Assembly: GCA_036677365.1 (NCBI GenBank)
Contig: JAVBWN010000014.1
Coordinates: forward strand, 1 to 64,000
DNA: 64,000 nt
Origin: Acholeplasma sp.
GTDB lineage: Bacteria > Bacillota_I > Bacilli_A > Acholeplasmatales > UBA5453
Direction of reading: 5' to 3'
The number at the start of each line of letters is the position of its first letter. Positions within the stretch are counted from its first letter, which is position 1. Shown in pieces: positions 31,431 through 54,311 of the stretch. The notes under the pieces were generated by a model. That model saw only the letters and a program-made list of their open reading frames with translations. It searched no databases and had not been told where the DNA came from. Position numbers and translations under genes: made by a program.

Positions 31431-31433
31431 AGA

Positions 31434-33472: not shown

Positions 33473-33961
33473 TTATCTAAGTTTGTCGTAAGCTTCTGTT
33501 TTCATCCATTTGGAGTACTCATATGCTTCTAAAACGGCAATTGTCGTAAATAGCAATAGCGATAAAATGATAAAAAAAGTATATGTTTGCCTAAGTGAAC
33601 TTGTAGAATCTGCTAATCTCAAGTATGTTTGAGTCGCATCTTTAACTTCTAAAAGTGTTCTTGTTCCAACATAAGAGATAGATAACTCTTGGCCGTTTTC
33701 AACATTTTCTAAAAAATCATCATAATCAAATGCATGCTGGTAATGGGTCTCAATCTCATACGTTTTGCCATCAGAATCCTTCAGAAGGTAGTATGATGAA
33801 TCATCATTAATAAACCTAATGGAGTCAAATATGATCGAAATAGACTTTGAATTATTCAGTTGATGAATGCCATTTAGTGAACCAATGAGCATACCAATCG
33901 GTAATAACAAAATAGCGATATAGATTACGATTCGTATTGCGATAGCTTTGTTCCTTGTCAT
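33473..33961 (-). CDS. Hypothetical membrane protein (N- and C-terminal TM helices)
   Basis: Two hydrophobic helices; GGTGAGG RBS. Confidence 0.65.
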   Translation of the reverse strand: MTRNKAIAIRIVIYIAILLLPIGMLIGSLNGIHQLNNSKSISIIFDSIRFINDDSSYYLLKDSDGKTYEIETHYQHAFDYDDFLENVENGQELSISYVGTRTLLEVKDATQTYLRLADSTSSLRQTYTFFIILSLLLFTTIAVLEAYEYSKWMKTEAYDKLR

Positions 33962-34076
33962 ATTTAAACCTCACCTTAAACACTTTAATAAGTCCAATTT
34001 GTTATGGTTTTTGCTTTTTTGTGAATTACTTGATTTTACCACTAAATGGCTATTCAGTAACCACAGTGTTATATGT

Positions 34077-34115
34077 TTTTCCTATTTGAGACTTCATAAA
34101 CTGGTGTTATTGAAT
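34077..34115. repeat. Intergenic 39-bp cassette-boundary repeat, copy B
   Basis: TTTTCCTATTTGAGACTTCATAAACTGGTGTTATTGAAT. Confidence 0.85.
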
Positions 34116-34186
34116 GGATGATAAAACCAAAATAGTTATATTAGATAACTTGTACGTTGACTTAATTATCTGTATGATCTCAATCA

Positions 34187-34528
34187 TTATTCATTCTTAG
34201 ATTTTAACGTTTTTAGTTCAAGTTCAACATCTCTTAAGTATTCGTCACGATGGTAGTCTCTTAAACTATTAAACTTTTTATTAATCTCACTAAATTTATG
34301 AGTTGTGTCACGATCAAAAACTTTATGATAACTTTTATCTAGGATAAGTTCTAAAAATCTACTGTCATAACTTGGTTTGCCATCATTCTCATTGAAACGA
34401 CCTTTGATATAACCTATTGGTTGTATAAATGCTTCTTCCGGACTGAATGAGTTACATTCATAATCAAACTTGTTATTAATCCTTCTTTCTAGTGTTTTTA
34501 CCATCTGCTTTGTAATAATATATTTCAT
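34187..34528 (-). CDS. Hypothetical protein
   Basis: 113-aa ORF with AGGAGG RBS. Confidence 0.65.
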   Translation of the reverse strand: MKYIITKQMVKTLERRINNKFDYECNSFSPEEAFIQPIGYIKGRFNENDGKPSYDSRFLELILDKSYHKVFDRDTTHKFSEINKKFNSLRDYHRDEYLRDVELELKTLKSKNE

Positions 34529-34677
34529 CTTAATTCCTCCTTATTTGATTTTTTTTAATACCCTTTGAGATTCTATTTAATGTTAAGGTATGCTTGGATT
34601 TTAATTGAGGAAATACCATGTTGACAAAGAAGTTCTCTAATTGCTCCATTCCAACCCTTAAAGTGGAAAATCAATAC

Positions 34678-35868
34678 CTAAAAAGTATATCTATGATGAA
34701 TGGGAAGGTTCTTTATGTATTTAAAATATATGTTTTTCAATATTTTACTTGCCTCAATATTGCTCTTGCTTAGTAATCTAGTAAAATCAGTAATTGTTTT
34801 TTTTGCAATGGGAACATCTTGGTAAATCGGGCGATAATAATCTCCACCTTCATATTCTCCTGTTGATTCCCTTCTACCATTAATCACTACGTCGGCGGTC
34901 ACAAAAAAACATTCAGCAAATTCTTTATAATTAGTAATTACATCATAATAGTCTGTATTATGAATTAAACTTTTCAGTTTTCGAATTACTGATTTTGGGT
35001 TAAAATCGAATACTCCAGATTTATTATAAAAACCTAATATTGTGTAAGAAAGTTCACTCGCCATTTCTCTAAAGATAGTTTTATTTTCATCTGTAATAGT
35101 AGTTTCAAAAACGTTATAAACATCTTCCAAAATGTCGTTAAAATTTTGATACCTCGAATCTACCTTATACTCACACATTTTAGAAACAATAGTGTCTAGA
35201 AATTCTGTATGTTCATCAAGGTGTAATTTGCTAATTATGTTTTGAAATATGTGTCCCAAATAGTAAATATCTGTTCTCATACTATAGTTGTTTTCCTTAT
35301 TAATCACTTCCTCTGGTTCAGATGCTGGCCAATTTAAAATAAGTGAACTGTTAGTTCCGCCAAAATCAATGTTAGTTTTACTATAACCAAAGTCAATTAA
35401 CTTAACTTGCCCATTTTCACTTACGAGAATATTCTTGTTCCTTAAATCTCTATGAATTATTCTATTTTTTTCTAAATGTTTAAAGCCTTCAATACACTGC
35501 ACAAAAATGCTCATTACCTGAGATGGATTAGTATTTAAATAACTGAAAATATCGTTTCCATCTATGTGTTCCATTAATATAAATCCAGTGGTATCACTTG
35601 TATCCGAAAATACAAAATGAGAAAAAATCCTAACAACATTCTCATGATAAGATGTGTACATTGATTTCAACTCTTCATTGAATCTCCCCTTTGATTCATC
35701 ATCATTAATCGGAACTGCTTTGCAAACAAAATTCATTTTTAAAGTATAATCATATAAAAGAGCAACCTCTCCCTGACCGCCACTTCCGATATAACCTATA
35801 AAAGTAAATCTATTTTTCCATTTTGAATTGACTAAAGACTCAATTGTCATAGAATATATCATCTCCAT
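34678..35868 (-). CDS. Hanks-type Ser/Thr protein kinase with C-terminal extension
   Basis: GSGGQGEV, VCK, HENVV, HRDLRNKNIL, DFG, DIYYLG. Confidence 0.9.
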   Translation of the reverse strand: MEMIYSMTIESLVNSKWKNRFTFIGYIGSGGQGEVALLYDYTLKMNFVCKAVPINDDESKGRFNEELKSMYTSYHENVVRIFSHFVFSDTSDTTGFILMEHIDGNDIFSYLNTNPSQVMSIFVQCIEGFKHLEKNRIIHRDLRNKNILVSENGQVKLIDFGYSKTNIDFGGTNSSLILNWPASEPEEVINKENNYSMRTDIYYLGHIFQNIISKLHLDEHTEFLDTIVSKMCEYKVDSRYQNFNDILEDVYNVFETTITDENKTIFREMASELSYTILGFYNKSGVFDFNPKSVIRKLKSLIHNTDYYDVITNYKEFAECFFVTADVVINGRRESTGEYEGGDYYRPIYQDVPIAKKTITDFTRLLSKSNIEASKILKNIYFKYIKNLPIHHRYTF

Positions 35869-36055
35869 TTTCTTTAAATAATAAATTACTCGATTTATGC
35901 GCTATTTGAATGTCTTGTATCTAAAAATCAATATCTCAATCTTCCATTCTTGACGAGGAAACTTGTTTCATCGATTCAATTGATATCAAATCGTCATTTT
36001 TTACTATTTAACTTAATCTCTGTAAAATTACCAAATCTATTTCAAAATCATCACA

Positions 36056-38086
36056 TTAGAGAGGTCTTAAATCCTTATCTATTACACCTAGTTCTATGAA
36101 TACCTCATCAAGTTTTTTCAACGTTTCAAATGTAAAATCCGTTGATTTAATCGCCTTACCAACCAGGTTTTCATTAACCTTCTTATTCCTAATATATTTT
36201 ACTCTATCCTCACCATGCAATAATCCTTCTAATGATTTTTCTTCAGAATCACCACCGACCAATACCTTTTGCTTAGAATCGATTTCATTCAAAATACTAA
36301 ATTTTGTCTTCGTGTCTGCATCTAAAATAATTTTGAACATTGTTTTTGAATCTTTAAGAAATTTATATAAAATTTTTGCGTTACCAGCACCTTCTAGACT
36401 GTAAATGAAGTATTTTGATAAATCAACTTTCCTTATTTTCATGTATGTTTCAAATAGAGTCTTATCACTTTTTCCTTCTACGAGTAGGTAAGTAATATTC
36501 TTATTTAGAATTAATTCTTTATAGCTATTTATTCCTATCTCGTTGATTACAGATATCGAATCGCTTATTGTTATTTGCTTAACAACTGATCCACTATCAT
36601 CAATATCAACAAAATAATAATTTTCTAGATTGTTAGGAATCATATCAATACTATTGGTGCAATAGATTACTTTATTTGTTTTTGAAAGTTCAATTAAGTC
36701 CATCAAAATTTGTTTTTGTGCATCAGGATGTAAAAATGACGCTGGTTCATCAATGATTATAATGTCATCTTTATCCATAGAATTCTTGAGAAAAATGTAT
36801 GACAGATACCATCTTCTACCTAAGCTAGTTGACTCCAATGGGATGTCAACACCATTTTTTTCTTTAATTTTATAAACAAAAGATCTGTTGTCTTCAGATA
36901 TAATTGCTGTTAATGAAAGAATTCTGTCTTTATCAAAAAGTGGAACGATTGTTGCAAGATATTTATCAATTTGATTCTTCAATTGCTTCTTTCGGCTATC
37001 AGTAATATTACTCAAATCTTTAATATCTTCGTTTTGTTGTAAAATGCCATTTTTCTTTAAATAGTTCGATACACACTTATAGATTACATTATTGCCATCA
37101 GTTCTTCTATTATAATAATCATTCGTTGTTTGAAACAACAAAGTACTTTCATTATCTAAATATAGTGCATCATAATCAATACTAGATTTTATTAAATTTA
37201 AAAAAGTGTTGTATTTTTTATCTTTCTTATCATTCTCATCATAATAATTGTTTAATCGATTATTAAACAAACGATGGATTTTTTGAACAATCCTATTAAA
37301 CTCATCAAGTGCTTTAGTAGCATTATCATAGTAATCCTTTAATTCACTATTTATTCTATCAATAGTCTTATCATACTCATCATAATTTATATCTGTAAAA
37401 GTCGCTAAAAGCGGATCAATATAAAGTGATTCTTTGCTTAAAAACCTAAGGTTGGGTACATTTATATATGGCAGTGATTGTACTTCATCATAATCAATAT
37501 TGATCTTACCCTTCTTAAAGTTATCTGACATAAACCTCTCAAGCGTATTAACAATTGTTTCCATTTTTGTTTTCGAGTCATCACTGCTACGTTCAAATCC
37601 ATAGAAATTTGTAGCGCTAACAATGTCTATACGACTGCTAGTTTTATTTTTCTTTGAAAGTTCTTCTATGGTAATTTCACTTAATTTCTTATAATAACAT
37701 TCAAAGTTTTCTACTATTTTATTTTTAAGACCTCTTAACTGATTTTCCCATTTTGAGATAGATAACTCATGTATTTTGGCTTTTACTCTAGTGGCTCTGA
37801 AATCACGATAACTTGATTCCACCTCGACAATTCTCATATCTTTATCAAACTCAACTTCATCTGAGAAGTTCTTGATTTCATCATCATTCAATTCATAAAT
37901 CAATTTGTAATTTGCTCTTTCATTGTGATGTTGATCAACTGAAAAAAACTGTTTAATCGCTCGTAGAATATTAGTTTTCCCACTACCATTCTTTCCAACG
38001 AAACAAAGAAGATTTTGCGAAAAATCTATCTCAATCGGTTTTCTAATGGATTTGTATTGACTGATTATCATCTTCTTTAATTTCAT
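36056..38086 (-). CDS. OLD-family ATP-dependent nuclease (ABC ATPase + TOPRIM)
   Basis: Walker A GKNGSGKT, signature SLGRR, Walker B IIDEP..FLHP, TOPRIM LVEGKSD and DAD. Confidence 0.85.
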   Translation of the reverse strand: MKLKKMIISQYKSIRKPIEIDFSQNLLCFVGKNGSGKTNILRAIKQFFSVDQHHNERANYKLIYELNDDEIKNFSDEVEFDKDMRIVEVESSYRDFRATRVKAKIHELSISKWENQLRGLKNKIVENFECYYKKLSEITIEELSKKNKTSSRIDIVSATNFYGFERSSDDSKTKMETIVNTLERFMSDNFKKGKINIDYDEVQSLPYINVPNLRFLSKESLYIDPLLATFTDINYDEYDKTIDRINSELKDYYDNATKALDEFNRIVQKIHRLFNNRLNNYYDENDKKDKKYNTFLNLIKSSIDYDALYLDNESTLLFQTTNDYYNRRTDGNNVIYKCVSNYLKKNGILQQNEDIKDLSNITDSRKKQLKNQIDKYLATIVPLFDKDRILSLTAIISEDNRSFVYKIKEKNGVDIPLESTSLGRRWYLSYIFLKNSMDKDDIIIIDEPASFLHPDAQKQILMDLIELSKTNKVIYCTNSIDMIPNNLENYYFVDIDDSGSVVKQITISDSISVINEIGINSYKELILNKNITYLLVEGKSDKTLFETYMKIRKVDLSKYFIYSLEGAGNAKILYKFLKDSKTMFKIILDADTKTKFSILNEIDSKQKVLVGGDSEEKSLEGLLHGEDRVKYIRNKKVNENLVGKAIKSTDFTFETLKKLDEVFIELGVIDKDLRPL

Positions 38087-38222
38087 ATTACACCTTCTTG
38101 ATTGTTTCTTACTTGCAACTAGATGCTGATTTTCTTTTTATAATATATGTGTAAGTATAGTGCATTCTTAAATACACGGATTCATCACTAAAAGTTTATC
38201 GTACAGCCATTAAGATATATCT

Positions 38223-38261
38223 TTTTCTCATTTGAGACATCATAAACAGTGATTATTGCAT
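38223..38261. repeat. Intergenic 39-bp cassette-boundary repeat, copy E
   Basis: TTTTCTCATTTGAGACATCATAAACAGTGATTATTGCAT; 3 nt from the stop codon at 38265. Confidence 0.85.
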
Positions 38262-38264
38262 TCA

Positions 38265-39020
38265 TTATTTCTTAGAAATTATCAGGAATCTATGTTCGGT
38301 TGATTCAATATAACCAACTTCTTTAATTCTTTTATCTAAATCAATAAACTTATCAAAATGTCTTTCTACTGAAAAATCAATAAATTCCCAACTGATGATT
38401 TTAGCAAAATAAGCGATAGCTCCCAAATCAAAGAATTTTATTTTAGGGTAATACTCTTGTTGATCAATGACTTTAAATCCTTTATTTATTAAGCGTTGAA
38501 CTGATTTTTCAAGTGTCATTTCTGGAAATTGATCCGTATGGTTGTCATCAAAAAAAGTAGCAAGATCTTTGTTATTAAATGCACCAATTTGCTGCGTAAT
38601 AAAGATACCACCTTTTTTTAAAACACGATATACCTCATTTTCATCATATGATTCATGTCTATTAACGACCATATCAAAATGATTTGATGGAATGTTAGTC
38701 AATTGATTATTTTCTGTAATTGGGTAAACTTTAATCCCTTTAGGTGCTAGTATTTCTTGACATAGTTTAATATTAGGTTCATAAGCTTCTGTCACAGATG
38801 TTAATTGGTGTGGATGATTGAGTGTTAATAAGAACTCGCCACCACCTGTTCCCATATCAAGTAATGTATCTGTTGGGTTTAAATATTTTAAAAGGATTTT
38901 CTTGTAATCCCAAGGTAGTATTTCGTTTTCCCATCTATTATTCAAATAAGAAAAATCCCATCCCTTAAATGTATGTTCTTCTTCTTTAATTAAATACTTT
39001 TTTAGTTCGTTGTTGTACAT
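38265..39020 (-). CDS. Class I SAM-dependent methyltransferase
   Basis: LLDMGTGGGE SAM-binding motif; FDMVVNRH; RVLKKGGIFITQQ. Confidence 0.88.
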   Translation of the reverse strand: MYNNELKKYLIKEEEHTFKGWDFSYLNNRWENEILPWDYKKILLKYLNPTDTLLDMGTGGGEFLLTLNHPHQLTSVTEAYEPNIKLCQEILAPKGIKVYPITENNQLTNIPSNHFDMVVNRHESYDENEVYRVLKKGGIFITQQIGAFNNKDLATFFDDNHTDQFPEMTLEKSVQRLINKGFKVIDQQEYYPKIKFFDLGAIAYFAKIISWEFIDFSVERHFDKFIDLDKRIKEVGYIESTEHRFLIISKK

Positions 39021-39091
39021 ATGTTTGCTTCCTTATCAATTTGCTCATATTTACTCGATTCTACCTATCTATTACCTATACAAGTATATCA

Positions 39092-39130
39092 TTTTCCACT
39101 TTAAGACCTCATAAACCACTATTATTGAAT
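39092..39130. repeat. Intergenic 39-bp cassette-boundary repeat, copy F
   Basis: TTTTCCACTTTAAGACCTCATAAACCACTATTATTGAAT; 3 nt from the stop codon at 39134. Confidence 0.85.
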
Positions 39131-39133
39131 TGA

Positions 39134-40288
39134 TTATCTGTAGGTATATTTGAGATATAAATCACCTAATTTTGCTTTTTTAATCATTACTCTTTTTGGT
39201 AATTCTGGTCTTGATAATGCTAATGTACCAATTATAATCTGACGATAGTTTTCGTAAATATCAACAAACGCATCCAGAATTTCATAAACCTTAGGGATAT
39301 TTACAGTTATTTCTGATTGTATAGTATTGTCTTTAAACACGATGGTTGGTGAATATGTAGTTATATGGAAATTCTCTTTATTTCTCTTGATTGAAAAGAT
39401 TTTTAATTCATCTTTATAGCAATTCGAAATTGCATCTAACTTATCCGAAAATTGTTTCTTTTTTAACCTAACATTAACAAGTGCTGTAATCTTGATAATA
39501 TATGAAAATGCTGATGAATGTCTCTCATCTGATTTAGTCATAAATAATTCACGGATTCTTGATATAAGCATTGTCAATATTTCATCTTGCATTATAATAA
39601 TATCAGCAGCTTCAATATGTGACTTTTCAGATGTTTTTTGTCTAAATTGATATTTTTTATTATTTTTAGAATATCTCAACAACTCTCTAGATAGTCTTAT
39701 TGTTGCACCTACATACCAATCTATAGAATTAAAGTGTTCTAAAAAAAACTCTAGTAACCTTTCTTTTTTGTAAAATGTAACCAATGGTTTCACATCATCG
39801 GCGATGGTATTTAGGTTTTCATTTCTATTTCTTAATCTCTTGTTTAATTCAGAAGTAAAAACAATTACATGTGAATAATGACTGCTTATATCTATCTCTG
39901 AATATTGCCACATCCCATTAATAATAAACTCAGATAAATCTACAGATAATAAAAGTAAGTAGACTTCATTTTCTCTTATAATAGTCGATTTTCGAAGAAT
40001 CTCTAGTACTTCTGAACGTTCTAAATTGTGCCATTCAATCCTAAGAACTTCAGAAATTCTTTCTTTAACCTGAGAATAATTATCAGAAAAGTCAAACAAG
40101 AAATATCCATCATTAATCATATGATTTATTGAATTGAAAAATGCTAACTCATCAAGTGAAGAACATAATTCCGTAATTTTGCCAAATAAGAGTGAACGGA
40201 AATTTGGATCCATATTTATTCTTGGATTTATCAATTTTTCTAATCCTTGTCCATTTATAGTTCTATTCATCCTAATCACCTTTTCCAT
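39134..40288 (-). CDS. Hypothetical protein
   Basis: 384-aa AT-rich ORF; no recognised motif. Confidence 0.6.
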   Translation of the reverse strand: MEKVIRMNRTINGQGLEKLINPRINMDPNFRSLLFGKITELCSSLDELAFFNSINHMINDGYFLFDFSDNYSQVKERISEVLRIEWHNLERSEVLEILRKSTIIRENEVYLLLLSVDLSEFIINGMWQYSEIDISSHYSHVIVFTSELNKRLRNRNENLNTIADDVKPLVTFYKKERLLEFFLEHFNSIDWYVGATIRLSRELLRYSKNNKKYQFRQKTSEKSHIEAADIIIMQDEILTMLISRIRELFMTKSDERHSSAFSYIIKITALVNVRLKKKQFSDKLDAISNCYKDELKIFSIKRNKENFHITTYSPTIVFKDNTIQSEITVNIPKVYEILDAFVDIYENYRQIIIGTLALSRPELPKRVMIKKAKLGDLYLKYTYR

Positions 40289-40340
40289 ATTTGCTCACTT
40301 TAACTTGATTTAAACTATCTATTACCCTTGTTGGACTACC

Positions 40341-40377
40341 ATTGCTTACTCATGAGTTCATAAACCATTAATCAAGG
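40341..40377. repeat. Degenerate cassette-boundary repeat, copy G
   Basis: Keeps TCATAAACCA abutting the stop at 40378. The adjacent 40289-40327 closely matches the flank of copy F (ATTTGCTCA...ACTYGATT...CTATCTATTACC). Confidence 0.6.
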
Positions 40378-40836
40378 TTAATCAATAGATTCAAGAGTAA
40401 ACCACTCATTACCCGTTTTGAACTTGAATACAACTTCTTTTTCATCTTGGTATCTGCTTGTCAAATATGGTCCGTACTTAGCATTTATAAAGTCTACAAA
40501 CGAAAAAATATCGAAGCAATCAACTGGTTCTCTACTTATTAAGAAATATTTGTATCCTTTATCTCTTCTTTTATTAACAAAATATATAACATCTTCTTTT
40601 GAAGAACATGCACTCACGAACTTGTTTCTTAATATTTTTGGAAACACTTTATTTTTGACTGCTCTGAAGATATATGTCTTTTTCCTAAATTCGGGAAAAT
40701 CATGATACAATGATTCAAGCATTTTTCTATGCTGGTCGGTCGGATAGTTAGAACCAAGATATTCATTTAGATTTCTCGTCAAAACCAGTAGTCCAAGACC
40801 AACAAAGTAAGCATCATAATCAAAAGTATTGTCTAT
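40378..40836 (-). CDS. ADP-ribosyltransferase-like protein (R-S-E clade); ORF track start 40782, RBS suggests ATA start at 40836
   Basis: YIFRAV ... FVSACSS ... YQDEKEVV motif triad; GAGGA RBS 6 nt before an in-frame ATA. Confidence 0.55.
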   Translation of the reverse strand: MDNTFDYDAYFVGLGLLVLTRNLNEYLGSNYPTDQHRKMLESLYHDFPEFRKKTYIFRAVKNKVFPKILRNKFVSACSSKEDVIYFVNKRRDKGYKYFLISREPVDCFDIFSFVDFINAKYGPYLTSRYQDEKEVVFKFKTGNEWFTLESID

Positions 40837-40955
40837 AATAATTCCTCTTTTCTATTCAGAATACTGTATATAACCTTATTACCTAGATATTAGATTTTTC
40901 ATTTTCTGTTGTGTAAAAAAAGGGGTCATTATTAACTCTAATACCCCTAATTCAT

Positions 40956-41564
40956 TCATAATATTGATAAATAATACCACTTATCATCTAATAATTTGTC
41001 TCTAACATCCTTTGAAAGAGCAACAGATCTATCCGCGTTTGTTCTTTCATCATCTTGCTTAACAGTAATTAAATCAACAGTTTGAATATCCGAGATGAAA
41101 TCTGAGAGTAGCTCGATTTTTGCTTTTTGTGTCAAACTTACAAGACTTAATTCCTTCACCTTATTATTTATTAAACTTAATATATGTTTGTTGGAGGGAT
41201 TATGATCAAAGTGAAAAAATTTTCCAGAAAGCTCTCGCTGTATTGACCCTTTCGAGTTGCTAGAAAACATTGCCCAGTTTCTATCAAGTGTTTTTTTCAA
41301 TATACCTACCCTATCTTCTTCAATGGTAAAGGGTATATTTTTATTCCCTAATTCGATCAACGCTGAACCGCTAATCCTGCTTCGTACAAATCTAGTACTT
41401 AATTTCATCCACGAACCACATAAAGTCGAGTTACCACCTCCACCTTTAAGTAGCTCCATCAAAAATAAATCATCATATTTAGCATTAAATATCTGAAAAT
41501 AAAAAACAGCAGTATTTCTAATCCATACATCCCTAGACATATTACTTGAAATAGTTTTCCCCAT
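40956..41564 (-). CDS. Hypothetical protein, possible degenerate HNH-like subunit of the R-M-like operon
   Basis: Translationally coupled to the upstream gene; FHFDHNP motif. Confidence 0.5.
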   Translation of the reverse strand: MGKTISSNMSRDVWIRNTAVFYFQIFNAKYDDLFLMELLKGGGGNSTLCGSWMKLSTRFVRSRISGSALIELGNKNIPFTIEEDRVGILKKTLDRNWAMFSSNSKGSIQRELSGKFFHFDHNPSNKHILSLINNKVKELSLVSLTQKAKIELLSDFISDIQTVDLITVKQDDERTNADRSVALSKDVRDKLLDDKWYYLSIL

Positions 41565-42727
41565 TAATTTAACTCCTTATGTATACTTGATAATCTTGAC
41601 TTATTTAAAACAGTGTATACATGCATGGATATAGTCGGTTTCTTTTGACGAACTTTAGAAAACTCAAATGTAACATAACCTGCACTAATCTTAACATCGT
41701 TAATTTTAAGAAAGTATAAACTGTTAATGTCATACCGAGTAATTTTCGTCATTCCTCTTCCCTTTTTCTCATTGCTAGCATTATAAAGCATGGAAACCAT
41801 AACCCCATCAAATTTAGCACCTTGTGCATTTAAAACTAGTTTCAAATTATCAGGAGTGAAAACTGGATAATTATTTCTTCCAGCCATCCTAATTTCTGAA
41901 CCGGAAATATCAATGTTATCAAGCAAATGGGTAGAAGGTAAAGCGAAGATTTTACTGGAGTCTTGTAACAAATATAAATCTAGTTTCTTGGTTCTATATG
42001 TCGCAGATACCAATTCATCGGCAGTATCTTTATCAATTTCATTTCCGATTTTATAATTTGATCCGGCCATTTTATAAACATCTGTTACAGTATTGAATTT
42101 TTCTATGTACTTTAAAAATCCTGGTAACTCAGTCTTGATTTTTTCTGAAGGGATGAGCTTTCCATCTTCTTTGTAATCTAAATCATACTCTCCCATTTTG
42201 GCTTTTGAATCTTTAATCTCTAATCTAATTCTATAACCTTCATTAACGAATATTGCATCAATAGAGGATGAATCTCCATATTGAAGCAAAACTACACCAG
42301 ATTTTGAACCATGGTAAATATATCGTGGGAACTGACCTTCAAGTTCTCCACCTTTTGCTTTAATCAATGAAGTCAAAAGATGTGTAGGCACATTATCACG
42401 ATTATCGTCAGCATCAATAAAATATTCTAATTCTAACAGGTTTGCAACTGTCTGTATAACAAAGCATTCATTTAATATAGCAGGTTGTAATGCTTGCTGC
42501 TTTGAAAATTGCTTAGCAAACTCTGCTTGTGCAGCATTTGATACCTCCAGTGTTTTTTTTAATGATGATAATTCATTGATAAATGAATCGTAATCTGAAT
42601 ACAGTTGGAAATTTTCCTTATAAAAAACGTCTAATTTTCTAATGTTTGATTTAGAAGCCACTAACTTAGTTAACTTCCCATCATTATATATTTTGTTGAA
42701 TAGTAGAACTAACGCTTTATTCGTCAT
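41564..42727 (-). CDS. Putative PD-(D/E)xK restriction endonuclease
   Basis: E..V...SIDAIF....IRLEIKD motif; overlaps the MTase gene end. Confidence 0.55.
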   Translation of the reverse strand: MTNKALVLLFNKIYNDGKLTKLVASKSNIRKLDVFYKENFQLYSDYDSFINELSSLKKTLEVSNAAQAEFAKQFSKQQALQPAILNECFVIQTVANLLELEYFIDADDNRDNVPTHLLTSLIKAKGGELEGQFPRYIYHGSKSGVVLLQYGDSSSIDAIFVNEGYRIRLEIKDSKAKMGEYDLDYKEDGKLIPSEKIKTELPGFLKYIEKFNTVTDVYKMAGSNYKIGNEIDKDTADELVSATYRTKKLDLYLLQDSSKIFALPSTHLLDNIDISGSEIRMAGRNNYPVFTPDNLKLVLNAQGAKFDGVMVSMLYNASNEKKGRGMTKITRYDINSLYFLKINDVKISAGYVTFEFSKVRQKKPTISMHVYTVLNKSRLSSIHKELN

Positions 42728-44276
42728 GGCTCACCTCATAGTTTTTATGAAGTAGTTCCATGTCTTTCGCATACTTAGGAAACAATACCTCATTTATTTT
42801 GAGTCGATATTCTTCAGGGAACTTAATACTCTCTTGTTGTTCTCCTGCGTTTAATTTGTATGAAACATAGTCAGATTCCTTATCAATCATTGAAGCAATT
42901 GTATCTTCAATTTCTATTATTTTTTCAAACAATTCCTCATGATATGGTATAGAATAAAGTATTCGTTTCGAAAAGAGAATACCGCCATCTGAGAAACGCC
43001 ACCACATGTATGCGTAACTTGAGTTTAACAAAGAATATAACAAATCAAACGAAGCTTCATTCTTAGCATATATTATGAAGTATCCTTTTCTGTTTAAGGA
43101 TTTTTTACTAGCAAGTGTAAAATATCTTGCCGAAGTAGAGACGTACAACTTATAATCATTACTTTGAAGTAATGGCTCAAATTGAATAAGATCAGACAAG
43201 TATTTCACATCACCATGACTAATCTCATTTACCATTGGTTCAAGTTCTCTAAATGCTTTAATTGGTCGATCTAGCATTTGGACATTGGATCCTAATTTAC
43301 TTCTTAAAAACTCCAAATTTATAACTTCAAATCTTTGATCAGTTCTAAATCTAATAAGGTGTGTCAATTTAAACCCATTATGACCATTTCTCTTTAAGGA
43401 TGTAATTGAAGCTCTAACACCATTTGCTGAGTTTGTGTTAAATATACCATGCTTTTTTCCACTAAATAACGTTCCTGGAACATTATCAAATGAAAATATC
43501 TCACCATAGAAATTATCTGATAGTTTTGATCTAAGTTTTGAGAATTTAGCAGCAACAAGATACGACTGGGGAGATACTATAACTGCATTTTCACAATAAT
43601 TGATAATCTTGTTCATAAATGCCGCATACAAGTCCTTTGCTTGAAGTAATACATCGTCCACATTCCATGACTTATTAAATTGCTTAATCAATGCATATGG
43701 TGGATTAGTTATCACAGATACTCCTGCTGGAAGTGACACTCTTTTATCTAGGAAATCTGCATGTACAACATTTATTTTATGTGAGACTTCAACTTCGAGT
43801 AAAATATCTATCTTTTTCAAACATATATTTAACGCAATACCATCAGCGTCATATAGATATAATTTACCATCCATAATAAAATCAATCGGATCGATTCCTT
43901 TTGTATCTTTAAGCATACTTAGAACCTGTATGATTAGGTTTCCTGTACCACAACCAACATCTGCTATTGTTAGGATTTTGTTTTCTAATAATAACCTAGA
44001 CATGACAAGACTAACATCTTTTGGTGTATAGTATTTCCCCATATCCTTTTTCGAAATTTTATTTGTGTGTGCTAGTCCAATTTCATACAGTTCTCCGAGG
44101 TTATCAAAATCTAAGAGGACATTTTTGGACAACTCTACGATTCGTTTATCAGTTAGAAAACTTAGTATAACTTCCCAAGTTTTTGTCAATCCAATTTCAT
44201 CTATCATTTTCAAATAGTGGTCGATAGTAAAGGTGTTGATATTTATTTTTTGATTTGGTTTGACTGTTTTGCTCAT
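42717..44276 (-). CDS. N6-adenine DNA methyltransferase (gamma class)
   Basis: GKYYTP, DVGCGTGN, ITNPPY, DLYAAF, then a TRD-like C-terminus (SLLNSS). Confidence 0.88.
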   Translation of the reverse strand: MSKTVKPNQKININTFTIDHYLKMIDEIGLTKTWEVILSFLTDKRIVELSKNVLLDFDNLGELYEIGLAHTNKISKKDMGKYYTPKDVSLVMSRLLLENKILTIADVGCGTGNLIIQVLSMLKDTKGIDPIDFIMDGKLYLYDADGIALNICLKKIDILLEVEVSHKINVVHADFLDKRVSLPAGVSVITNPPYALIKQFNKSWNVDDVLLQAKDLYAAFMNKIINYCENAVIVSPQSYLVAAKFSKLRSKLSDNFYGEIFSFDNVPGTLFSGKKHGIFNTNSANGVRASITSLKRNGHNGFKLTHLIRFRTDQRFEVINLEFLRSKLGSNVQMLDRPIKAFRELEPMVNEISHGDVKYLSDLIQFEPLLQSNDYKLYVSTSARYFTLASKKSLNRKGYFIIYAKNEASFDLLYSLLNSSYAYMWWRFSDGGILFSKRILYSIPYHEELFEKIIEIEDTIASMIDKESDYVSYKLNAGEQQESIKFPEEYRLKINEVLFPKYAKDMELLHKNYEVSHDE

Positions 44277-44597
44277 ATTAAACCCACCTTCCCTTTATAA
44301 TCTTTACATTTAATTCATTATCATTTAGCCAACTTTTATTACAACAATATAAGTAGAATATATATAATTATATATATGCTGTCATCAATTAGATTTTATC
44401 ACAGAACCGTAGAATTTGCTATTTTTGTGTTCGAGTGTAATCGCTTAAACTATCAATGCACTATTCGAAACATAATCATGAGAATTCCGAATTCTAAAAT
44501 CTGTAAATGAACATACTCAATAATTACATTAATTTTTATATTCTACTCGATTTTTCCACTATTTACCACTCTTTCAACTAGTTGAAAAGGGTATCGA

Positions 44598-44636
44598 TTT
44601 TCCTATTTAAGACATCATAAACATGCATTATTGATT
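44598..44636. repeat. Intergenic 39-bp cassette-boundary repeat, copy I (array-proximal)
   Basis: TTTTCCTATTTAAGACATCATAAACATGCATTATTGATT. Confidence 0.85.
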
Positions 44637-44741
44637 AGATAAATTGTATCACAAAAGCCCTTGTAATTCTACCTTTAATTAAAATTAAAGCACCTTAAAG
44701 TTTATGATCACTCATCTTCATCAGAGACATCAATATTCAAC

Positions 44742-45242
44742 TTATTCAATATTCGGATACATTTCATAGTAACTATCAACGAAATCTTCAATATTTTTGA
44801 ATTCGTTAATAAACTTTTCATAGAGTTCTAAGGCGAATCCTTCTGCTTGTTGTTCTAATAGGTGTGTACCCCATTTATCACTTGAATCATCGTAGTTTTC
44901 GGCTTTAAATTCATGAATCATTTGAGTCATTTCATCCTCTGTGAATAGGTTATTTTTAACTCCCATACCATATCCAATCACAGCTGAGTATTGAACTGAA
45001 TGAAATGTTTCATGGAATGCACATTTGATGATTCTATCAGTCTGTGCAGTTCTAAGCCATTCACGATTGTACCGAATAACAAACATTTCCTTTTCGAAAA
45101 GACCTGAGTGATTGATTGACTTAAACATATCTCCATCGTTAATGAACACCCATAGTGCATCATCTACTTTCAAAAATTTTCTGGCAAAGTTGGTTGCTGC
45201 TATAACGAGTTTTTCATTTAAACTCCCATCACAATTATTCAT
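44742..45242 (-). CDS. Zincin-like metallopeptidase (ImmA/IrrE-like)
   Basis: AFHETFHSVQ (HExxH) and a distal EQQAEGFA. Confidence 0.65.
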   Translation of the reverse strand: MNNCDGSLNEKLVIAATNFARKFLKVDDALWVFINDGDMFKSINHSGLFEKEMFVIRYNREWLRTAQTDRIIKCAFHETFHSVQYSAVIGYGMGVKNNLFTEDEMTQMIHEFKAENYDDSSDKWGTHLLEQQAEGFALELYEKFINEFKNIEDFVDSYYEMYPNIE

Positions 45243-45401
45243 GTAATCACTCCTCCAATTACAGATGATTATACTACATGTTTTACTGAATTCAATTAAA
45301 ACTCATACGTTTTTATTCTCCAAAAATAATGTTTATAAAAGTCACTCTTAAAATCGGTTTTATCATAGATAAGTCATCACATTTGATAAAATATTTACTA
45401 C

Positions 45402-46487: not shown

Positions 46488-46513
46488 CTTGAACCAAATT
46501 GATTAATACACGA

Positions 46514-47668
46514 TTAAACACCATGTTTGAATAATTCCTTAAATATTTCACAAAGCACATCGATGACGATACCATTACCAGCAAATGTGTACAGTCTAGC
46601 ATCTGAGAACTTATCTATAATTAAGTCGATTCTATCATCTGTCCAACCCATCAATCTTAATGATTCTCTTGGTGTGATACGTCGTATCATTAAGGCTTTA
46701 TCTCTTTCGACAATAACTCCTAAATCACTGACTGTCCTTTTTATAGTTTGAATCTTTCCTTTTTGGACACACCCACGCTTTTGATGTGGACGGTTAATAT
46801 AGATGCCATCACCTAAATAAGCCTCCTTATAGCCCTTTAGCGTTGCTTCTGGAACGATAACGTAATTGTCTGTTGGTGTTGATCCTTTTCTTGTTGTAAT
46901 GGTAAATGCGTATCTACTCTTAGCGGTGTCATGTGGTTTAAACCTATTGCCTCTAATGAAACCATTTCTATCTGTTGGATCCGTGCAATATAGCAAGAAT
47001 GCTTCGCTTATGAAATACTTCTCATCTACTACTGGCTCAAGATAATCGATAAGATTTTTCTCAAGTGGAAATGCATTTGGAAATTCAAACTCAAAACTTG
47101 GATTCAATATAGAAACCAGGAATACTCGGTTTCTTGTTTGTGGTATACCATAATCTTTAGCATTTAGCTGTTTCCAGTAATTCTTATATCCTAATGCTTC
47201 TAAAAACCCTAACCACTCATTAAAACTATGAATGAATTTCTTAGATACAAGCATAGGTACATTTTCCATAAATAGATACTTTGGCAATTCATTTAATTCT
47301 TTTGACTTCATCAGTAATCTTTCAACTTCCCAAAGCAGCGATGATGCTGTATTTGAATTTCGATCCATTCCTTTCATTGAGCCTGCTAACGATATATCCG
47401 TACATGGAGCTGAATAGCACCATAAATCTGCTTGCGGAAGTCTTTCAACATTCGCAATATCCCCATAGTTTGGTATATTACCATGAAGGATTTTATGTGC
47501 TTCAATAGCATACTTATTTATTTCTGAAATACCCATCAGTTCGTGTTCAACGTTGTTTCTTCTCAAAGCTTCTGCATATCCACCAATGCCAGAAAAAAGT
47601 TCAACAACAGTCAAGTTTTGGATTCGCTTAAAAACAGGTGAATAATCACCATTTTTTATTGTATTCAT
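46514..47668 (-). CDS. C5-cytosine DNA methyltransferase
   Basis: ELFSGIGG, SAPCTD, ENV, PQTRNRVF, AGNGI. Confidence 0.93.
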   Translation of the reverse strand: MNTIKNGDYSPVFKRIQNLTVVELFSGIGGYAEALRRNNVEHELMGISEINKYAIEAHKILHGNIPNYGDIANVERLPQADLWCYSAPCTDISLAGSMKGMDRNSNTASSLLWEVERLLMKSKELNELPKYLFMENVPMLVSKKFIHSFNEWLGFLEALGYKNYWKQLNAKDYGIPQTRNRVFLVSILNPSFEFEFPNAFPLEKNLIDYLEPVVDEKYFISEAFLLYCTDPTDRNGFIRGNRFKPHDTAKSRYAFTITTRKGSTPTDNYVIVPEATLKGYKEAYLGDGIYINRPHQKRGCVQKGKIQTIKRTVSDLGVIVERDKALMIRRITPRESLRLMGWTDDRIDLIIDKFSDARLYTFAGNGIVIDVLCEIFKELFKHGV

Positions 47669-47682
47669 AGATGTAATTTCCC

Positions 47683-47886
47683 CTATTTATTTTTTAATGT
47701 ATCGATTGGTTTTTCTTTGACTTTAATCTCTTTTAATGTTAAAAACTTTTCTAGAGATTCTTCAGTTACCCTTAACTGATTCCCAAGTCTAATTGCTTTT
47801 AATTCTCCAGTGGCGATATACTTATTAATGGTTTTACGTGAGACGGACAACATCTCACATACTTCAAATACGCTATATATTTTCAT
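47683..47886 (-). CDS. Excisionase-like winged HTH protein
   Basis: YSVFEVCEMLSVSRKTI.KYI..GELKAIRLG.QLRV. Confidence 0.8.
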   Translation of the reverse strand: MKIYSVFEVCEMLSVSRKTINKYIATGELKAIRLGNQLRVTEESLEKFLTLKEIKVKEKPIDTLKNK

Positions 47887-48659
47887 GATCTTTTAGTTTT
47901 CCCATTTGCTTTCTCCAAAATTTCGTTGATATATCGGATACCTTTATCCGAGACAACGATTTGTGTTGTTTTCTTTTCTTTGTCTCCGATTTGGCTAATC
48001 CATGTGAAGTATCTGAAGCAACCATTCTCCACTAGACTTGCGGTTGGACGACAAAACTCATCAATGGCACCACTTTGCCTAAGATGACCTAATAATTGAG
48101 TATATGTAGTTTTGTACTTAAGTTTTTCATGCACTCTACGTAACGGAACCATCGAAGTGTTATCTGTAAACTCAAAGTAGAGCTTAGCACCTTCTTTTAA
48201 TTCTTCGAGTTGACCTTCTAAGACATTGATCTTTCTGGTTTTTTTCTCGAAACTAGATATCAATTCATCTTGTTCTTCTTGTGGTAAAATCATCCCTTTA
48301 GTATAACCACAGTAGGAAGTCTTCATATCGCTAATAATTGTTAGGATTGATTTTGCATAGTACTCTGCATCTTTTAACTTGGAGAAGTTTTTTATGACTT
48401 CAATATCCTCTTCGGCTACACCAGCTAATTTTTTAACATTTGCACCAAACTTAACATCAAAATAGTTAAGATTTCCCCTATACTTCTCAGGCAAATCTTT
48501 GATTTCCACATCAAATAATTTTTTCATATCATTGAGTTCAATAAAATAACAATGTAGTTTTTCGCTAAATATGATTCGTACGGTTTTGCCATTATAAACC
48601 GTGACCGTGAATACTTTATTTTTCATGTCTACCTTCCTTTTTGGTCTTAAGTATTGCAT
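47883..48659 (-). CDS. Antirepressor-like protein
   Basis: Bro-like N-terminal region, coiled coil and KilAC/ANT-like C-terminus (P....VENG.F...TT...V..KG..YI). Confidence 0.55.
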   Translation of the reverse strand: MQYLRPKRKVDMKNKVFTVTVYNGKTVRIIFSEKLHCYFIELNDMKKLFDVEIKDLPEKYRGNLNYFDVKFGANVKKLAGVAEEDIEVIKNFSKLKDAEYYAKSILTIISDMKTSYCGYTKGMILPQEEQDELISSFEKKTRKINVLEGQLEELKEGAKLYFEFTDNTSMVPLRRVHEKLKYKTTYTQLLGHLRQSGAIDEFCRPTASLVENGCFRYFTWISQIGDKEKKTTQIVVSDKGIRYINEILEKANGKTKRS

Positions 48660-49560
48660 TTGAGACTAGTTCATTTGTACCTGATTTCATTTTTTCTACT
48701 AAATGTGAGTAAATCTGTGTGCTTGTAATGCTGGAATGTCTTAGAGATTCTTTAACTTCCAATATGGATGCGCCTTGGATAAGGGATAGTGTGGCAAATG
48801 AATGCCTAGTTGAGTGAGCAGAGAATGCTCTACTATCTAGACCTATGGAACGAAAAGCATCTTTAACCATAGTCCTAATAACAGCTGTCTTCATACGAAT
48901 CTCTTGACCGCTACGACGGTATGTTGTAAATAGTGGATTATTGCGGTCGTCTAAATTGGTATTATCTCTAGTTTCTAGATAGGCAAGTAGTATTTCGTAA
49001 ACATCATCTGTAAGTTTAACAAAATTATCCTTGTCATCTCTACCTTTTCCTTGGATGTATAAAACATAACCATTACCTATGACATCAATATCTTCAATGT
49101 CAGCTCGTTCCACTTCAATTGCTCTCAATCCTGTTGTAAAAAGTAATGCGAGAATAGCTAGATTCCGTTTCCCTTTAACTGTGTTGACTTTTTTTCGAGC
49201 ATTATGAATCACTTTTCTTATATCTTCCTCAGTTAATGGTTGTCTTTTATAAGTTGTTGCTACTTTTACACCTTTAACTGCATAAGTGATATCATCATCA
49301 ATTCCGTTTAATTTTAGATATCTATAAAATCCACGAAGAACAACAAGTGATTTTTGGATAGATGATGAAGATAACTTCTTTTTAACTAGATAATCCTTAT
49401 ACGCTAGAATCACATTCCTATTTGGGTTAGTTATGTTATACGTTTCTAGATAATCTTGATAAGCATGAAGTGACTTTCGATATGATTCCTTAGATATCTC
49501 TTTTAAGTCTAGGAACGAGATGTACTCTGAAATTTTCTCATTTAGATCATAGTTCATCAT
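48616..49560 (-). CDS. XerC/D-like tyrosine recombinase
   Basis: SAM-like N domain plus the full catalytic set TGLR, GKG, HSTRH, LRH, TQIY; 314 aa with no arm-binding domain. Confidence 0.92.
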   Translation of the reverse strand: MMNYDLNEKISEYISFLDLKEISKESYRKSLHAYQDYLETYNITNPNRNVILAYKDYLVKKKLSSSSIQKSLVVLRGFYRYLKLNGIDDDITYAVKGVKVATTYKRQPLTEEDIRKVIHNARKKVNTVKGKRNLAILALLFTTGLRAIEVERADIEDIDVIGNGYVLYIQGKGRDDKDNFVKLTDDVYEILLAYLETRDNTNLDDRNNPLFTTYRRSGQEIRMKTAVIRTMVKDAFRSIGLDSRAFSAHSTRHSFATLSLIQGASILEVKESLRHSSITSTQIYSHLVEKMKSGTNELVSNAILKTKKEGRHEK

Positions 49561-50869: not shown

Positions 50870-51097
50870 ATGAACAGCTATAATATTTTGAAATCAGCAC
50901 TTTATGAATCAATCGTTTTATCTTTGTTAAAACGAAACATTTTATCGCTTGATGAAGCCATCGGTTGCTTAAATGCGATAGATAAAGACATAAAGTCAAC
51001 GAATGACTTGAATAAAGAAATGATTATGGTAAAACAAAAAAGACCTACCAATTGTAGTATTGGTAAGTCAGACTTGGAGGATTGTAATCATGAATAA
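50870..51097 (+). CDS. Small helical protein upstream of serine recombinases (possible directionality factor)
   Basis: AGGAG RBS; LLKRNILSLDE SHOCT-like motif; overlaps the recombinase start. Confidence 0.55.
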   Translation: MNSYNILKSALYESIVLSLLKRNILSLDEAIGCLNAIDKDIKSTNDLNKEMIMVKQKRPTNCSIGKSDLEDCNHE

Positions 51098-54171: not shown

Positions 54172-54311
54172 AGTTCGGATTCGTGTTATGTCCGTCTCAA
54201 ATACTGGTTCAAACTCGTGTCACCTATTCTTTTTTAGATATAAACATTTCAATCAGCAGTCTACCAATCAATTAGCAGTTTTCTCGGTAGACTCTTTTTT
54301 ATACAAAAAAA

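Follow-up and report, generated by a model that had tools for sequence, protein, structure and literature searches.

How does a temperate phage come to carry a row of mutually unrelated accessory genes, all facing one way and parted by copies of a single short repeat? The question is raised by a 64,000-nucleotide stretch of an Acholeplasma sp. genome (positions 1–64,000 of contig JAVBWN010000014.1, assembly GCA_036677365.1; the whole stretch is called the window below), which holds a prophage whose accessory block was described in a first-pass annotation as a candidate integron-like cassette array, with dif/Xer-like sites between the genes and a dedicated tyrosine recombinase. The repeat is the 5' third, on the coding strand, of an element of about 107 nt, here termed the junction element, which frames arrays of single-gene cassettes across the temperate phages and prophage remnants of the order Acholeplasmatales, and which appears to be undescribed. 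Cassettes are reshuffled inside these elements, with a hot zone at a 21-bp site, TTCAATAA-N5-GTTTATGA, and elements with the same N5 spacer are avoided within an array. As to mechanism, our tentative preference, held at somewhat less than even confidence, is homologous exchange at portable junction elements that supply each cassette with a promoter and a leader; site-specific exchange at the 21-bp site stands near parity with it.

The repeat and the element around it

On the plus strand of the window the motif TTTTC-N3-TTTRAGACNTCATAAAC-N5-TTATTG occurs in four exact copies (34077, 38223, 39092 and 44598), the N5 letters differing in each, and the genes between the copies share one orientation and are unrelated to one another, all as the first-pass annotation had stated. 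None of 100 dinucleotide-preserving shuffles of the window contained any match to the full pattern, and its 17-mer core, expected 0.32 times, is matched four times. The degenerate fifth copy that had been suspected is real, being recovered by a sequence model (R1) built from the copies, with which all element matches in the window were scored (Table 1). Confinement of the motif to the accessory block also holds: the host genome (1.97 Mb, 37 contigs) contains no further true copy, its near-matches (one with a single mismatch, others with two) all lying in coding sequence with flanks unlike those of the element, and the 21-bp site alone, allowed two mismatches, gave five extra matches there as against five for a reversed control, that is, no excess.

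Every gene between about 8 and 50 kb of the window lies on the minus strand, so that the motif is properly read as its reverse complement. In that orientation the order of parts is CAATAA-N5-GTTTATGA-N-GTCTYAAA-N3-GAAAA, followed by a TATACT box, a G-rich start region and a conserved leader of ~45 nt, which stops just short of the ribosome site and ATG of the next gene. The site picked out by the first reading is genuine, but it forms part of a longer promoter-and-leader-like element that went unseen, since conservation extends ~75 nt beyond the motif and the conserved stretch is about three times longer than had been recognized. The 3-nt gap said to follow an upstream stop codon needs correction as well; from stop to CAATAA the distance is 6 nt at 38223 and 39092, 74 nt at 34077 and 108 nt at 44598, and the sole copy overlapping a stop codon is the degenerate one.

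Relatives of the element were sought by pattern and model searches in related genomes, IMG/VR contigs, 185,579 species (one genome each) and metagenomes. A hidden Markov model built from 64 aligned copies gave 346 matches in the collected DNA, which reduce to 187 distinct copies with the 107-column consensus TaATnnatTCAATAAtnannGTTTATGAngtCTTAAAtngGaAAAtnatATACtTntaTgggtAatagAtAtncnnannnnnGtAAAtangaGtAAatnaaaAAA. Best conserved is the 21-bp site: both 8-nt arms are within one mismatch in 144/187 copies, and the spacer between them is 5 nt long in 120 of the 122 copies measurable by a simple pattern. The conserved part is 5' of the open reading frame (ORF) that follows, a co-oriented ORF starting between -15 and +120 nt from the element end in 124 of the 164 copies with enough flank (median 17.5 nt; 40/164 in an opposite-strand control), and another co-oriented ORF ends just upstream of the element in 128 of 178 copies (median gap 6 nt).

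Neither a consensus RNA fold (RNAalifold on 33 copies, 0 pairs) nor an Rfam match in window positions 30000–52000 was found, and the lack of RNA structure implies that the element works either at the DNA level or as an unstructured leader. A 5' hairpin proposed for the element was dropped, being 60% paired and no better than slid controls. The leader contains GTAAAT-like repeats phased at 10–11 bp, which could wrap an accessory protein.

Arrays and their distribution

The 187 copies fall in 84 arrays, 54 of which hold 2–6 copies, in a layout of element, usually one ORF, and element again, on one strand throughout. Loci L066, L068, L070, L072 and L074 are regular examples, the first packing five elements and four single ORFs into 2.7 kb. 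The cassette-like, integron-like architecture that had been claimed from the window, namely co-oriented and mostly single-ORF units parted by one conserved element, is thereby borne out. The cassette genes are mutually unrelated; there are many GNAT acetyltransferases, NUDIX, GrpB, Cass2/GyrI-like and AraC proteins, together with ANT(2'')-like nucleotidyltransferases, LD-carboxypeptidase, methyltransferases, OLD nucleases, AbiH, Abi_2, STAND NTPases, PD-(D/E)XK and NERD nucleases, a Schlafen-like protein, a reverse transcriptase and defence kinases.

Copies are present in 9 of 22 genomes at the family level and in 19 of 151 at the order level (7/21 in family f1, 10/61 in f3, 1/2 in f5, 0/61 in f2 and 0/5 in f4), and at E ≤ 1e-6 none was found in 138 sampled genomes from the rest of the class. 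A 46-bit pattern run against the one-genome-per-species set retrieved 22 loci, 19 of them in genomes assigned to Acholeplasma, Paracholeplasma or Acholeplasmataceae and the remaining three in two metagenome-assembled genomes (MAGs) labelled Bacillota or Bacilli. The element is restricted to Acholeplasmatales. A tblastn search with 29 window proteins matched only the near-identical relative and one short contig.

Four arrays, at loci L033, L072, L074 and L076, lie 0.7–6 kb from a tRNA-Cys(GCA) gene (11457–11531, 6473–6547, 4273–4346 and 6971–7045, respectively), the same tRNA that borders the window prophage, and in one of the four a serine-recombinase fragment is found between array and tRNA; the array of L020 adjoins a tmRNA gene (11607–11953). 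Such positions imply that the arrays belong to integrated elements, intact or decayed. The idea of 'sedentary chromosomal arrays' at a syntenic locus was dropped, the locus being the tRNA-Cys at which this phage family integrates, and these neighbourhoods suggest that tRNA-Cys(GCA) is a shared integration hot spot with decayed prophages.

Among the metagenome loci L109–L176, many contigs end ~80–170 nt from the element match and about a dozen begin there. Assemblers thus seem to break at the repeats, which suggests that arrays are likely under-assembled in MAGs.

Reshuffling of cassettes

Gene content was predicted to differ among relatives with breakpoints at the sites, and it does so with breakpoints inside the elements. 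The nearest relative (L012/L013) is, by blastn, 93.3% identical to window positions 47404–44551 and 97.6% identical to 34126–26000; homology ends at 44551 and resumes at 34126, and between these flanks 10.4 kb of the window face 14.1 kb of unrelated genes in the relative, with only a 55-nt element copy in common, a wholesale replacement between the first and last elements. The 5.5-kb segment 39109–44614, bounded by two elements, recurs with 3–8 differences and other flanks in one DNA and two metatranscriptome runs, and the contigs of these three runs cease to match the window precisely at 39109, immediately past GTTTATGA in the element at 39029–39138.

Flank sharing was defined over the 187 copies as an 80-nt flank identity of at least 0.85, the 99th percentile for unrelated pairs being 0.675. 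By this measure 92 pairs share the upstream flank and 67 the downstream flank, and only 20 share both. Directly behind GTTTATGA, one upstream cassette (ANT(2'')-like) continues into no fewer than six distinct downstream contexts, and a single downstream cassette is in the same way found behind several upstream ones. The ANT(2'')-like cassette, whose product belongs to the Pfam aminoglycoside-2''-adenylyltransferase family (L001 1193–1732, L003 3099–3602 and related metagenome loci), is the most widely reshuffled in the set.

Change-point analysis was applied to 88 non-redundant pairs, including a sharp set of 54 non-palindrome pairs whose shared flank is at least 95% identical. In the sharp set 37 support intervals (about 70%) overlap element columns 13–24, and other 9-column windows starting at column 20 or later take in at most 17 of the 54 sharp breakpoints. 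The expectation that breakpoints lie in the variable core is correct to the extent that this majority fits the 7-bp core or its two arms, but they are not confined to the 7 bp, and 17 of the 54 fall outside the 21-bp site. First elements of prophage arrays pass into variable DNA at column 70–74 in 16 pairs, and the left breakpoint of the nearest relative lies ~50 nt downstream of the core.

A single crossover position was rejected, since at most 29 of the 88 pairs can be reconciled with any one column. Pairs that share the downstream flank begin sharing at the left arm (24/41 compatible with columns 10–17) and those that share the upstream flank do so through the right arm (17/47 compatible with columns 21–29), so that the spacer is usually identical in both partners. 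Triples in which both parental types are available gave ~12 distinct recombinants, most of them switching within columns 7–32. Tight switch intervals span columns 13–18, 11–21, 20–22 and 22–30; those at 13–18, 20–22 and 22–30 are mutually non-overlapping, and hence there is no single crossover point. The 5' and the 3' spacer of a cassette both stay with it when its context changes. This excludes the simple insertion of a circle by way of a single crossover point, and agrees with a double exchange from one array to another, whichever mechanism is at work.

The signature of precise deletion, a recombinant whose parental elements are adjacent in one array, was seen in 0 of 54 triples, although bookkeeping of overlapping loci may have missed some. 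None of 27 complete short contigs had the matching ends of an excised circle, and the only joint in the contigs was an irrelevant 79-nt skip, rare circles being beyond what contigs can show in both cases.

Spacers fall into discrete classes, with TCACT (35), TAGTG (24), CTACA (17) and TTAGG (12) the most frequent among the 187 copies. Identical spacers are depleted within arrays, at 5 of 181 pairs against 12.7 ± 3.4 in shuffles, of which 13 in 2000 were as low. Between elements from unrelated contexts the longest identical tract overlaps columns 13–24 in 59% of 7612 pairs (median 10 nt), and between same-spacer elements in 93% of 877 pairs (median 21 nt). Since the longest tracts sit in the 21-bp site, homologous recombination predicts the same hot zone. 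The hot zone (69–74% of sharp breakpoints), the sharing of spacers by exchange partners and the avoidance of repeated spacers thus each follow from either mechanism.

Promoter-like features and transcription

Promoters of A. laidlawii are described, in passages of a published study, as combining a -10 box and a pronounced TTGACA -35 box with transcription that begins at G or A after a gap of 6 nt (PMC5138195). The typical junction element has aTGAnG at columns 26–31, then 18 nt, TATACT at columns 50–55, a further 6 nt, and G at column 62, which agrees with the published rules in its -10 box, gap and start letter. TATACT as such is found in 72/187 copies and a hexamer with A2 and T6 in 104/187, and the predicted start is G or A in 173/187; an AATAAT box occurs in the left arm of 114/187. 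A generic promoter scan returned 97 sites against 102.6 expected, which is no enrichment and so is uninformative, and a terminator scan detected no terminator-like site inside the elements. From the conserved signals we infer that the element may be a promoter. The two arms make up an imperfect inverted repeat which, in our reading, would be centred near -42 of the predicted start, a common activator position.

Metatranscriptome contigs from two studies cover the cassette block 39109–44614 at a depth of 31–69, and one RNA run covers the region of the CI-like repressor (50102–50500) at 19x; RNA contigs scarcely reach the intervening replication genes, if at all, though part of these genes is present in a DNA run. 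This hints weakly at separate transcription of the cassettes, and the pattern fits expression during lysogeny, which contigs cannot prove. The RNA contigs of the two studies stop at 44611–44614, corresponding to columns 30–33 of the first element, and one RNA contig reads across an element, so that the elements do not terminate transcription.

How the cassettes may be exchanged

In the reading that we tentatively prefer, the element would occupy, on the coding strand, the interval between one cassette's stop codon and the ribosome site of its successor, and would give each cassette expression signals of its own, comprising the 21-bp site, the promoter-like signals and the ~45-nt leader. As the same ~107 bp flank unrelated genes, the element would also act as portable homology, at which double crossovers, joining elements that share a spacer class, could move cassettes among phages, prophages and their remnants. 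Catalysis might be by general or phage-encoded 'relaxed' homologous recombination, as proposed for the PeSL elements of T4-type phages. All-against-all ORF clustering over 15 loci was used in search of a regulator or recombinase common to the element loci, and none emerged, no family occurring in more than five loci and none near the arrays; as regards recombinases, this counts in favour of homologous exchange.

Several observations weigh on the other side. The -35 region (aTGAnG) is poor, TG precedes the -10 box in only 53/187 copies and T6 is absent in 83/187, while the apparent RNA 5' end, if real, lies upstream of the predicted start at column 62 and nearer the left-arm AATAAT box. Same-spacer identity of only ~21 nt (median) is short for RecA-type recombination. 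Discrete spacer classes and a spacer of fixed length between two arms are not obviously how a neutral promoter spacer behaves, the inner arms match the host dif at five of six letters on each side, and homologous exchange leaves unexplained the tight framing of more than 100 unrelated genes by the elements.

The alternative that survives best, a serious contender that we nonetheless judge somewhat short of probable, takes the 21-bp site to be a tyrosine-recombinase core of Xer/dif type, with arms CAATAA and TTATGA around a 7-bp centre, at which sites of the same spacer would be exchanged through cointegrate formation and resolution, in the manner of the dif modules of Acinetobacter. The enzyme might be the phage's own early-operon Xer-like recombinase, host XerC/XerD, or both, with recombinase-less arrays as remnants, and the rest of the element would be promoter and leader, or else accessory sequence as in cer and psi. 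A conserved site with a fixed 5-nt spacer suits such a core, as do the discrete spacer classes, their identity in exchange partners and their depletion within arrays, the share of sharp breakpoints compatible with the site, and the shortness of the identical tracts; the host genome, having no other copies of the site, also speaks against its being that of a general regulator. Against this are set the sharp breakpoints outside the site, those of first elements at column 70–74 and that of the nearest relative past the core, the non-overlapping switch intervals, and the retention of both spacers, which rules out simple circle insertion. Tract length predicts the hot zone equally well, and neither circles nor joints were seen in contigs, which could hardly show them.

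Likeness to dif, on which the first-pass annotation had leaned, turns out to be partial. A dif-module site spans 28 bp, two 11-bp arms around a 6-bp spacer. The host has a dif candidate, ACCTATAA-TGTATA-TTATGTAAACC (G000:C15:3038, minus strand, outside the window), which by its sequence is probably the dimer-resolution site of the chromosome. Aligned with CAATAA-TNNNNGT-TTATGA, it agrees at 5/6 of the inner letters of each arm, but the outer halves are mismatched, so that overall ~11/22 arm positions match, and the centre is 7 bp in the element as against 6 in dif.

The phage recombinase (48616–49560) is catalytically complete, as had been claimed, its alignment to 4a8e_A showing GLRaiE, the lysine region, HstRHSFAT, RHSS and QIY. 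With scores of 133.6 bits for the NCBIfam XerD model (cut-off 329.6) and 128.6 for XerC (cut-off 335.15), it is on sequence grounds Xer-like, and not an equivalog or orthologue of XerC, XerD or IntI. Its gene lies ~4 kb from the first element, and syntenic orthologues, in the order cro, recombinase, KilAC, HTH_17 ... replisome organiser, orf166, first element, are found in L172 (97%), L110 (90%), L125 (82%) and L069 (50%); in G029 an 80% homologue precedes the first element by 6.7 kb and shares its strand. The phages of these five also carry serine integrases, and wherever the sequence of a relative of this phage extends far enough, the recombinase is found beside cro. A complete enzyme retained beside cro in a lineage that already has two serine integrases looks like a spare, which suits site-specific exchange, as does the presence of elements in all five genomes with an orthologue of at least 50% identity.

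The expected co-occurrence of motif and recombinase nevertheless does not hold throughout. Of 151 genomes, 19 have elements and 19 the recombinase clade (E ≤ 1e-40) with an overlap of 8, so that 11/19 element genomes lack the clade, 11/19 clade genomes lack elements, and the one is neither necessary nor sufficient for the other; kinship inflates any test of this overlap. When any tyrosine recombinase near the array is counted in five array genomes, two have one within 10 kb and two have none within at least 70 kb, and one of the array-near enzymes adjoins a type I restriction gene. The fifth, genome G088, has only two tyrosine recombinases in all, both on contigs other than that of its array. 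Arrays beside tRNA-Cys or tmRNA that look chromosomal may, in favour of an Xer-type enzyme, be decayed prophages. The strict version first put forward, with the phage enzyme as sole catalyst, is a sub-case that we consider improbable.

A more ambitious form of site-specific exchange is conceivable, though we judge it less likely than not: an undescribed cassette-exchange system of Acholeplasmatales phages, independent of integrons, in which each cassette would have a promoter and leader and a dif-like 21-bp core, and in which an Xer-type enzyme (of the early operon, host XerCD, or both) would swap sites belonging to the same one of a few incompatible 5-nt spacer classes whenever a phage meets a resident prophage or remnant. 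Arrays of defence and accessory genes would then be built and renewed and yet be stable against internal deletion. Between site-specific and homologous exchange, we place the latter only slightly ahead.

Considerably less plausible, in fact quite unlikely, is a purely regulatory element (promoter, operator and leader) with no part in recombination, the breakpoints being no more than the borders of genes that were acquired separately and each took up the same control region. Promoter-like features in a fixed position before ORFs agree with this, as do the arms when taken as an inverted repeat at a common activator place, and so does the first element of the window, where an 18-bp perfect palindrome, TTTTCAACTAGTTGAAAG (44571–44588, coding strand), occupies the place of the usual -10 and looks like an operator. 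This same form of first element, or one with TTTTTAACTAGTTAAAG, stands at the start of the array in no fewer than eight related prophage contigs, the junction to variable DNA coming just after the palindrome. Such an account is, however, confronted by one upstream cassette in at least six downstream contexts and one downstream cassette behind several upstream ones, by switches inside elements in ~12 distinct recombinants, by the lack of any regulator gene co-occurring with the elements or of further sites in the host genome, and by the consideration that more than 100 unrelated genes independently recruiting a 107-bp element would itself need a joining mechanism. Very improbable indeed is a transposable element (a miniature inverted-repeat or a one-ended, rolling-circle type) that would carry adjacent genes and an outward promoter and of which the junction elements would be the ends or relics. 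Although several arrays contain or adjoin insertion sequences (rve, IS1595, IS21) and metagenome contigs often end near elements, no transposase family co-occurs with arrays; the copies, all single-ended and on the coding strand, never form inverted pairs and lack target duplications in the alignments; and the rest of the host genome has none.

Relation to known systems

The layout is integron-like in working, yet the defining features of integrase and attC were looked for and not found. The resemblance lies in arrays of co-oriented, tightly packed and mostly single-ORF cassettes parted by one family of ~100-nt elements, and in the cassette repertoire (GNAT acetyltransferases, NUDIX, GrpB, Cass2/GyrI-like proteins, nucleotidyltransferases and defence genes); attC clusters without an integrase exist on the integron side too, and resemble those Acholeplasmatales arrays that have no recombinase nearby. 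The differences are that there is no IntI-type integrase (75.6 and 31.7 bits with the NCBIfam integron-integrase models, cut-offs 265 and 435), that the elements have no attC-like hairpin, stand 5' of the ORF and are promoter-like, whereas integron cassettes are usually promoterless, and that cassettes keep spacers at both ends, which is unfit for single-crossover insertion of a circle. To our knowledge, no integron has been reported from Mollicutes or their relatives.

In plasmid-borne dif (pdif) systems the sites alternate in orientation, those flanking a dif module being inverted, whereas all sites of an array here are on one strand in direct orientation. The Acholeplasmatales site further differs in its 7-bp centre, in outer arm halves unlike the host dif, in being embedded in a 107-bp promoter- and leader-like element, and in being carried by prophages, not plasmids. 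Common to both are short dif-like sites that bound accessory-gene modules with no need of a dedicated recombinase nearby, and exchange among the XerC/XerD-dependent Acinetobacter modules, which one article calls unique to that genus, is there said to take place apparently between sites with identical spacers, the pattern also seen here (PMC13141974).

PeSL elements of T4-type phages are, according to passages in two papers, short regulatory elements flanking non-essential genes in hypervariable regions, where recombination leads to insertions, deletions and replacements (PMC2839356, PMC4122927). Junction elements likewise flank variable genes, and recombination between them gives insertions, deletions and replacements. 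A PeSL combines a strong promoter with a terminator stem-loop, whereas junction elements have no stem-loop; PeSL mini-circles have been physically demonstrated, whereas none were seen here in contigs, which could hardly show them; and the phages here are temperate, belong to a wall-less Gram-positive lineage and have a two-arm 21-bp site without a PeSL counterpart.

The asymmetry of the element, a short candidate recombinase core with a longer conserved stretch on one side, recalls cer and psi, in which an Xer core is accompanied by accessory sequence on one side. Those sites occur once per plasmid and resolve dimers, whereas junction elements stand in arrays before genes. In Xer1/vpma-type systems DNA is inverted between paralogous genes for surface proteins, which face opposite ways and depend on a common promoter, whereas the genes here are unrelated, lie in one orientation and each have a promoter-like region of their own. 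Shared with the Mycoplasma switches, as passages on them indicate, are the setting in Mollicutes, a site in the conserved 5' region of clustered genes and an Xer-like recombinase beside it (PMC2268961).

A description of the element was not found in open-access full text, the scope being main texts as distinct from supplements. One paper mentioning Acholeplasma has matching passages that concern an unrelated aroF leader, and the paper on the A. oculi genome, which in its matching passages refers to regions resembling phage and to an assembly gap next to a P-type ATPase, uses neither 'repeat' nor 'intergenic'.

A single ~107-bp element thus frames single-gene cassette arrays across the temperate phages and remnants of a bacterial order, with cassettes ranging from defence genes (OLD nucleases, kinases, methyltransferases, Abi proteins, STAND NTPases, a reverse transcriptase) to small-molecule-modifying enzymes. 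Whatever enzyme is at work, the element is a concrete, searchable marker for the accessory-gene pool of these phages and a natural example of heterospecific sites, allowing exchange between genomes while limiting deletion within an array. Should exchange prove site-specific, these phages would possess an integron-like system of separate evolutionary origin, the second of its kind, in which the expression of cassettes is also solved in another way, by a promoter for each. Cultured isolates exist for several of the species with arrays, and genetic tools are available for A. laidlawii (PMC10805103), so that the system lends itself to experiment.

The prophage in the window

The elements, cassettes and recombinases of the window prophage are collected in Table 1. 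At its attachment end the two large serine-recombinase genes overlap (51060–52706 and 52663–54171, Pfam Resolvase/Recombinase), and the tRNA-Cys(GCA) gene occupies 54375–54448 on the minus strand (ARAGORN). Next comes a CI-like repressor (50097–50759) and, on the opposite strand from it, in order, a cro-like gene, the Xer-like tyrosine recombinase, a KilAC antirepressor, an HTH_17 protein, a C5 methyltransferase, a replisome organiser, a 166-amino-acid ORF (orf166) and the accessory block. Past the block lie a small-terminase-like gene, a ParB-methyltransferase, an S-adenosylmethionine (SAM) synthetase, an HNH protein, the large terminase and the structural genes, the last element preceding a conserved phage gene (33473–33961) and the packaging genes.

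Table 1. Junction elements, cassettes and recombinase genes of the window prophage (E, expectation value of the match to model R1 unless another source is named; aa, amino acids)
Feature	Position	Strand	Evidence and remarks
First junction element, 'palindrome type'	44533..44645	-	R1 E 7e-16; 21-bp site 44615-44635
Degenerate junction element	40277..40385	-	R1 E 2.5e-14; left arm lost, leader well kept
Junction element	39029..39138	-	Best R1 match, E 6e-23; 21-bp site 39109-39129, spacer TAGTG
Junction element	38164..38270	-	R1 E 6e-19; 21-bp site 38240-38260, spacer TCACT (commonest class)
Last junction element	34014..34123	-	R1 E 9e-21; 21-bp site 34094-34114, spacer CACCA
Possible partial element, leader part only, just upstream of kinase gene	35874..35935	-	Weak R1 match, E 0.12, model positions 52-113
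Variable region between first and last elements	34127..44550		blastn against nearest relative
Cassette block 1, four genes	40378..44276	-	Pfam, PADLOC
Type II-like N6 DNA methyltransferase (block 1)	42717-44276	-	Pfam; PADLOC MTase_II 3.7e-45
Three ORFs of block 1 without family match	41564-42727, 40956-41564, 40378-40782	-	
One-ORF cassette, 384 aa, no family match	39134..40288	-	
One-ORF cassette, class I SAM-methyltransferase-like, 251 aa	38265..39020	-	Pfam
Three-gene cassette block	34187..38086	-	Pfam, PADLOC
OLD-family ATPase-nuclease (three-gene block)	36056-38086	-	Pfam; PADLOC AriA/mad3/Old
Ser/Thr kinase (three-gene block)	34678-35868	-	Pfam; PADLOC PD-T4-6/mad6
Xer-like tyrosine recombinase, early operon, beside cro-like gene	48616..49560	-	Pfam Phage_integrase 1.9e-21
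Prophage attachment end	51060..54448	+	Two large serine recombinases and tRNA-Cys

The third gene of the three-gene block is an ORF of 113 amino acids, and the class I SAM-methyltransferase-like cassette recurs between two elements in another genome (L066 12104–12859). The OLD-family ATPase, the kinase and the methyltransferases (34678–38086 and 42717–44276) match PADLOC mad3 (4.6e-20), mad6 (1.1e-32), mad8 and mad2; judging by these matches, the cassettes may together represent a MADS-like methylation-associated defence system split over several junction elements.

The 166-amino-acid ORF (44742–45242) always stands just before the first element in this phage lineage (17 tblastn hits). Its candidacy as a regulator was set aside, with no match in Pfam, PHROG or NCBIfam, and in an atlas search its neighbours were SprT-like or metallopeptidase-like phage proteins, no more than a lead.

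In the prophage remnant at L066 (12973–14466 and 14561–19482) an RVT_1 reverse-transcriptase gene is the ORF just upstream of the array; its neighbours are a type I restriction R subunit and a separate tyrosine recombinase of 268 amino acids, possibly a phase-variable hsd locus. At 30053–33243 of the window, the SAM synthetase, a methyltransferase with a ParB domain and N6/N4 specificity, and the HNH protein are set between the small-terminase-like gene and the large terminase, a block that is kept in G005, G021 and L066.

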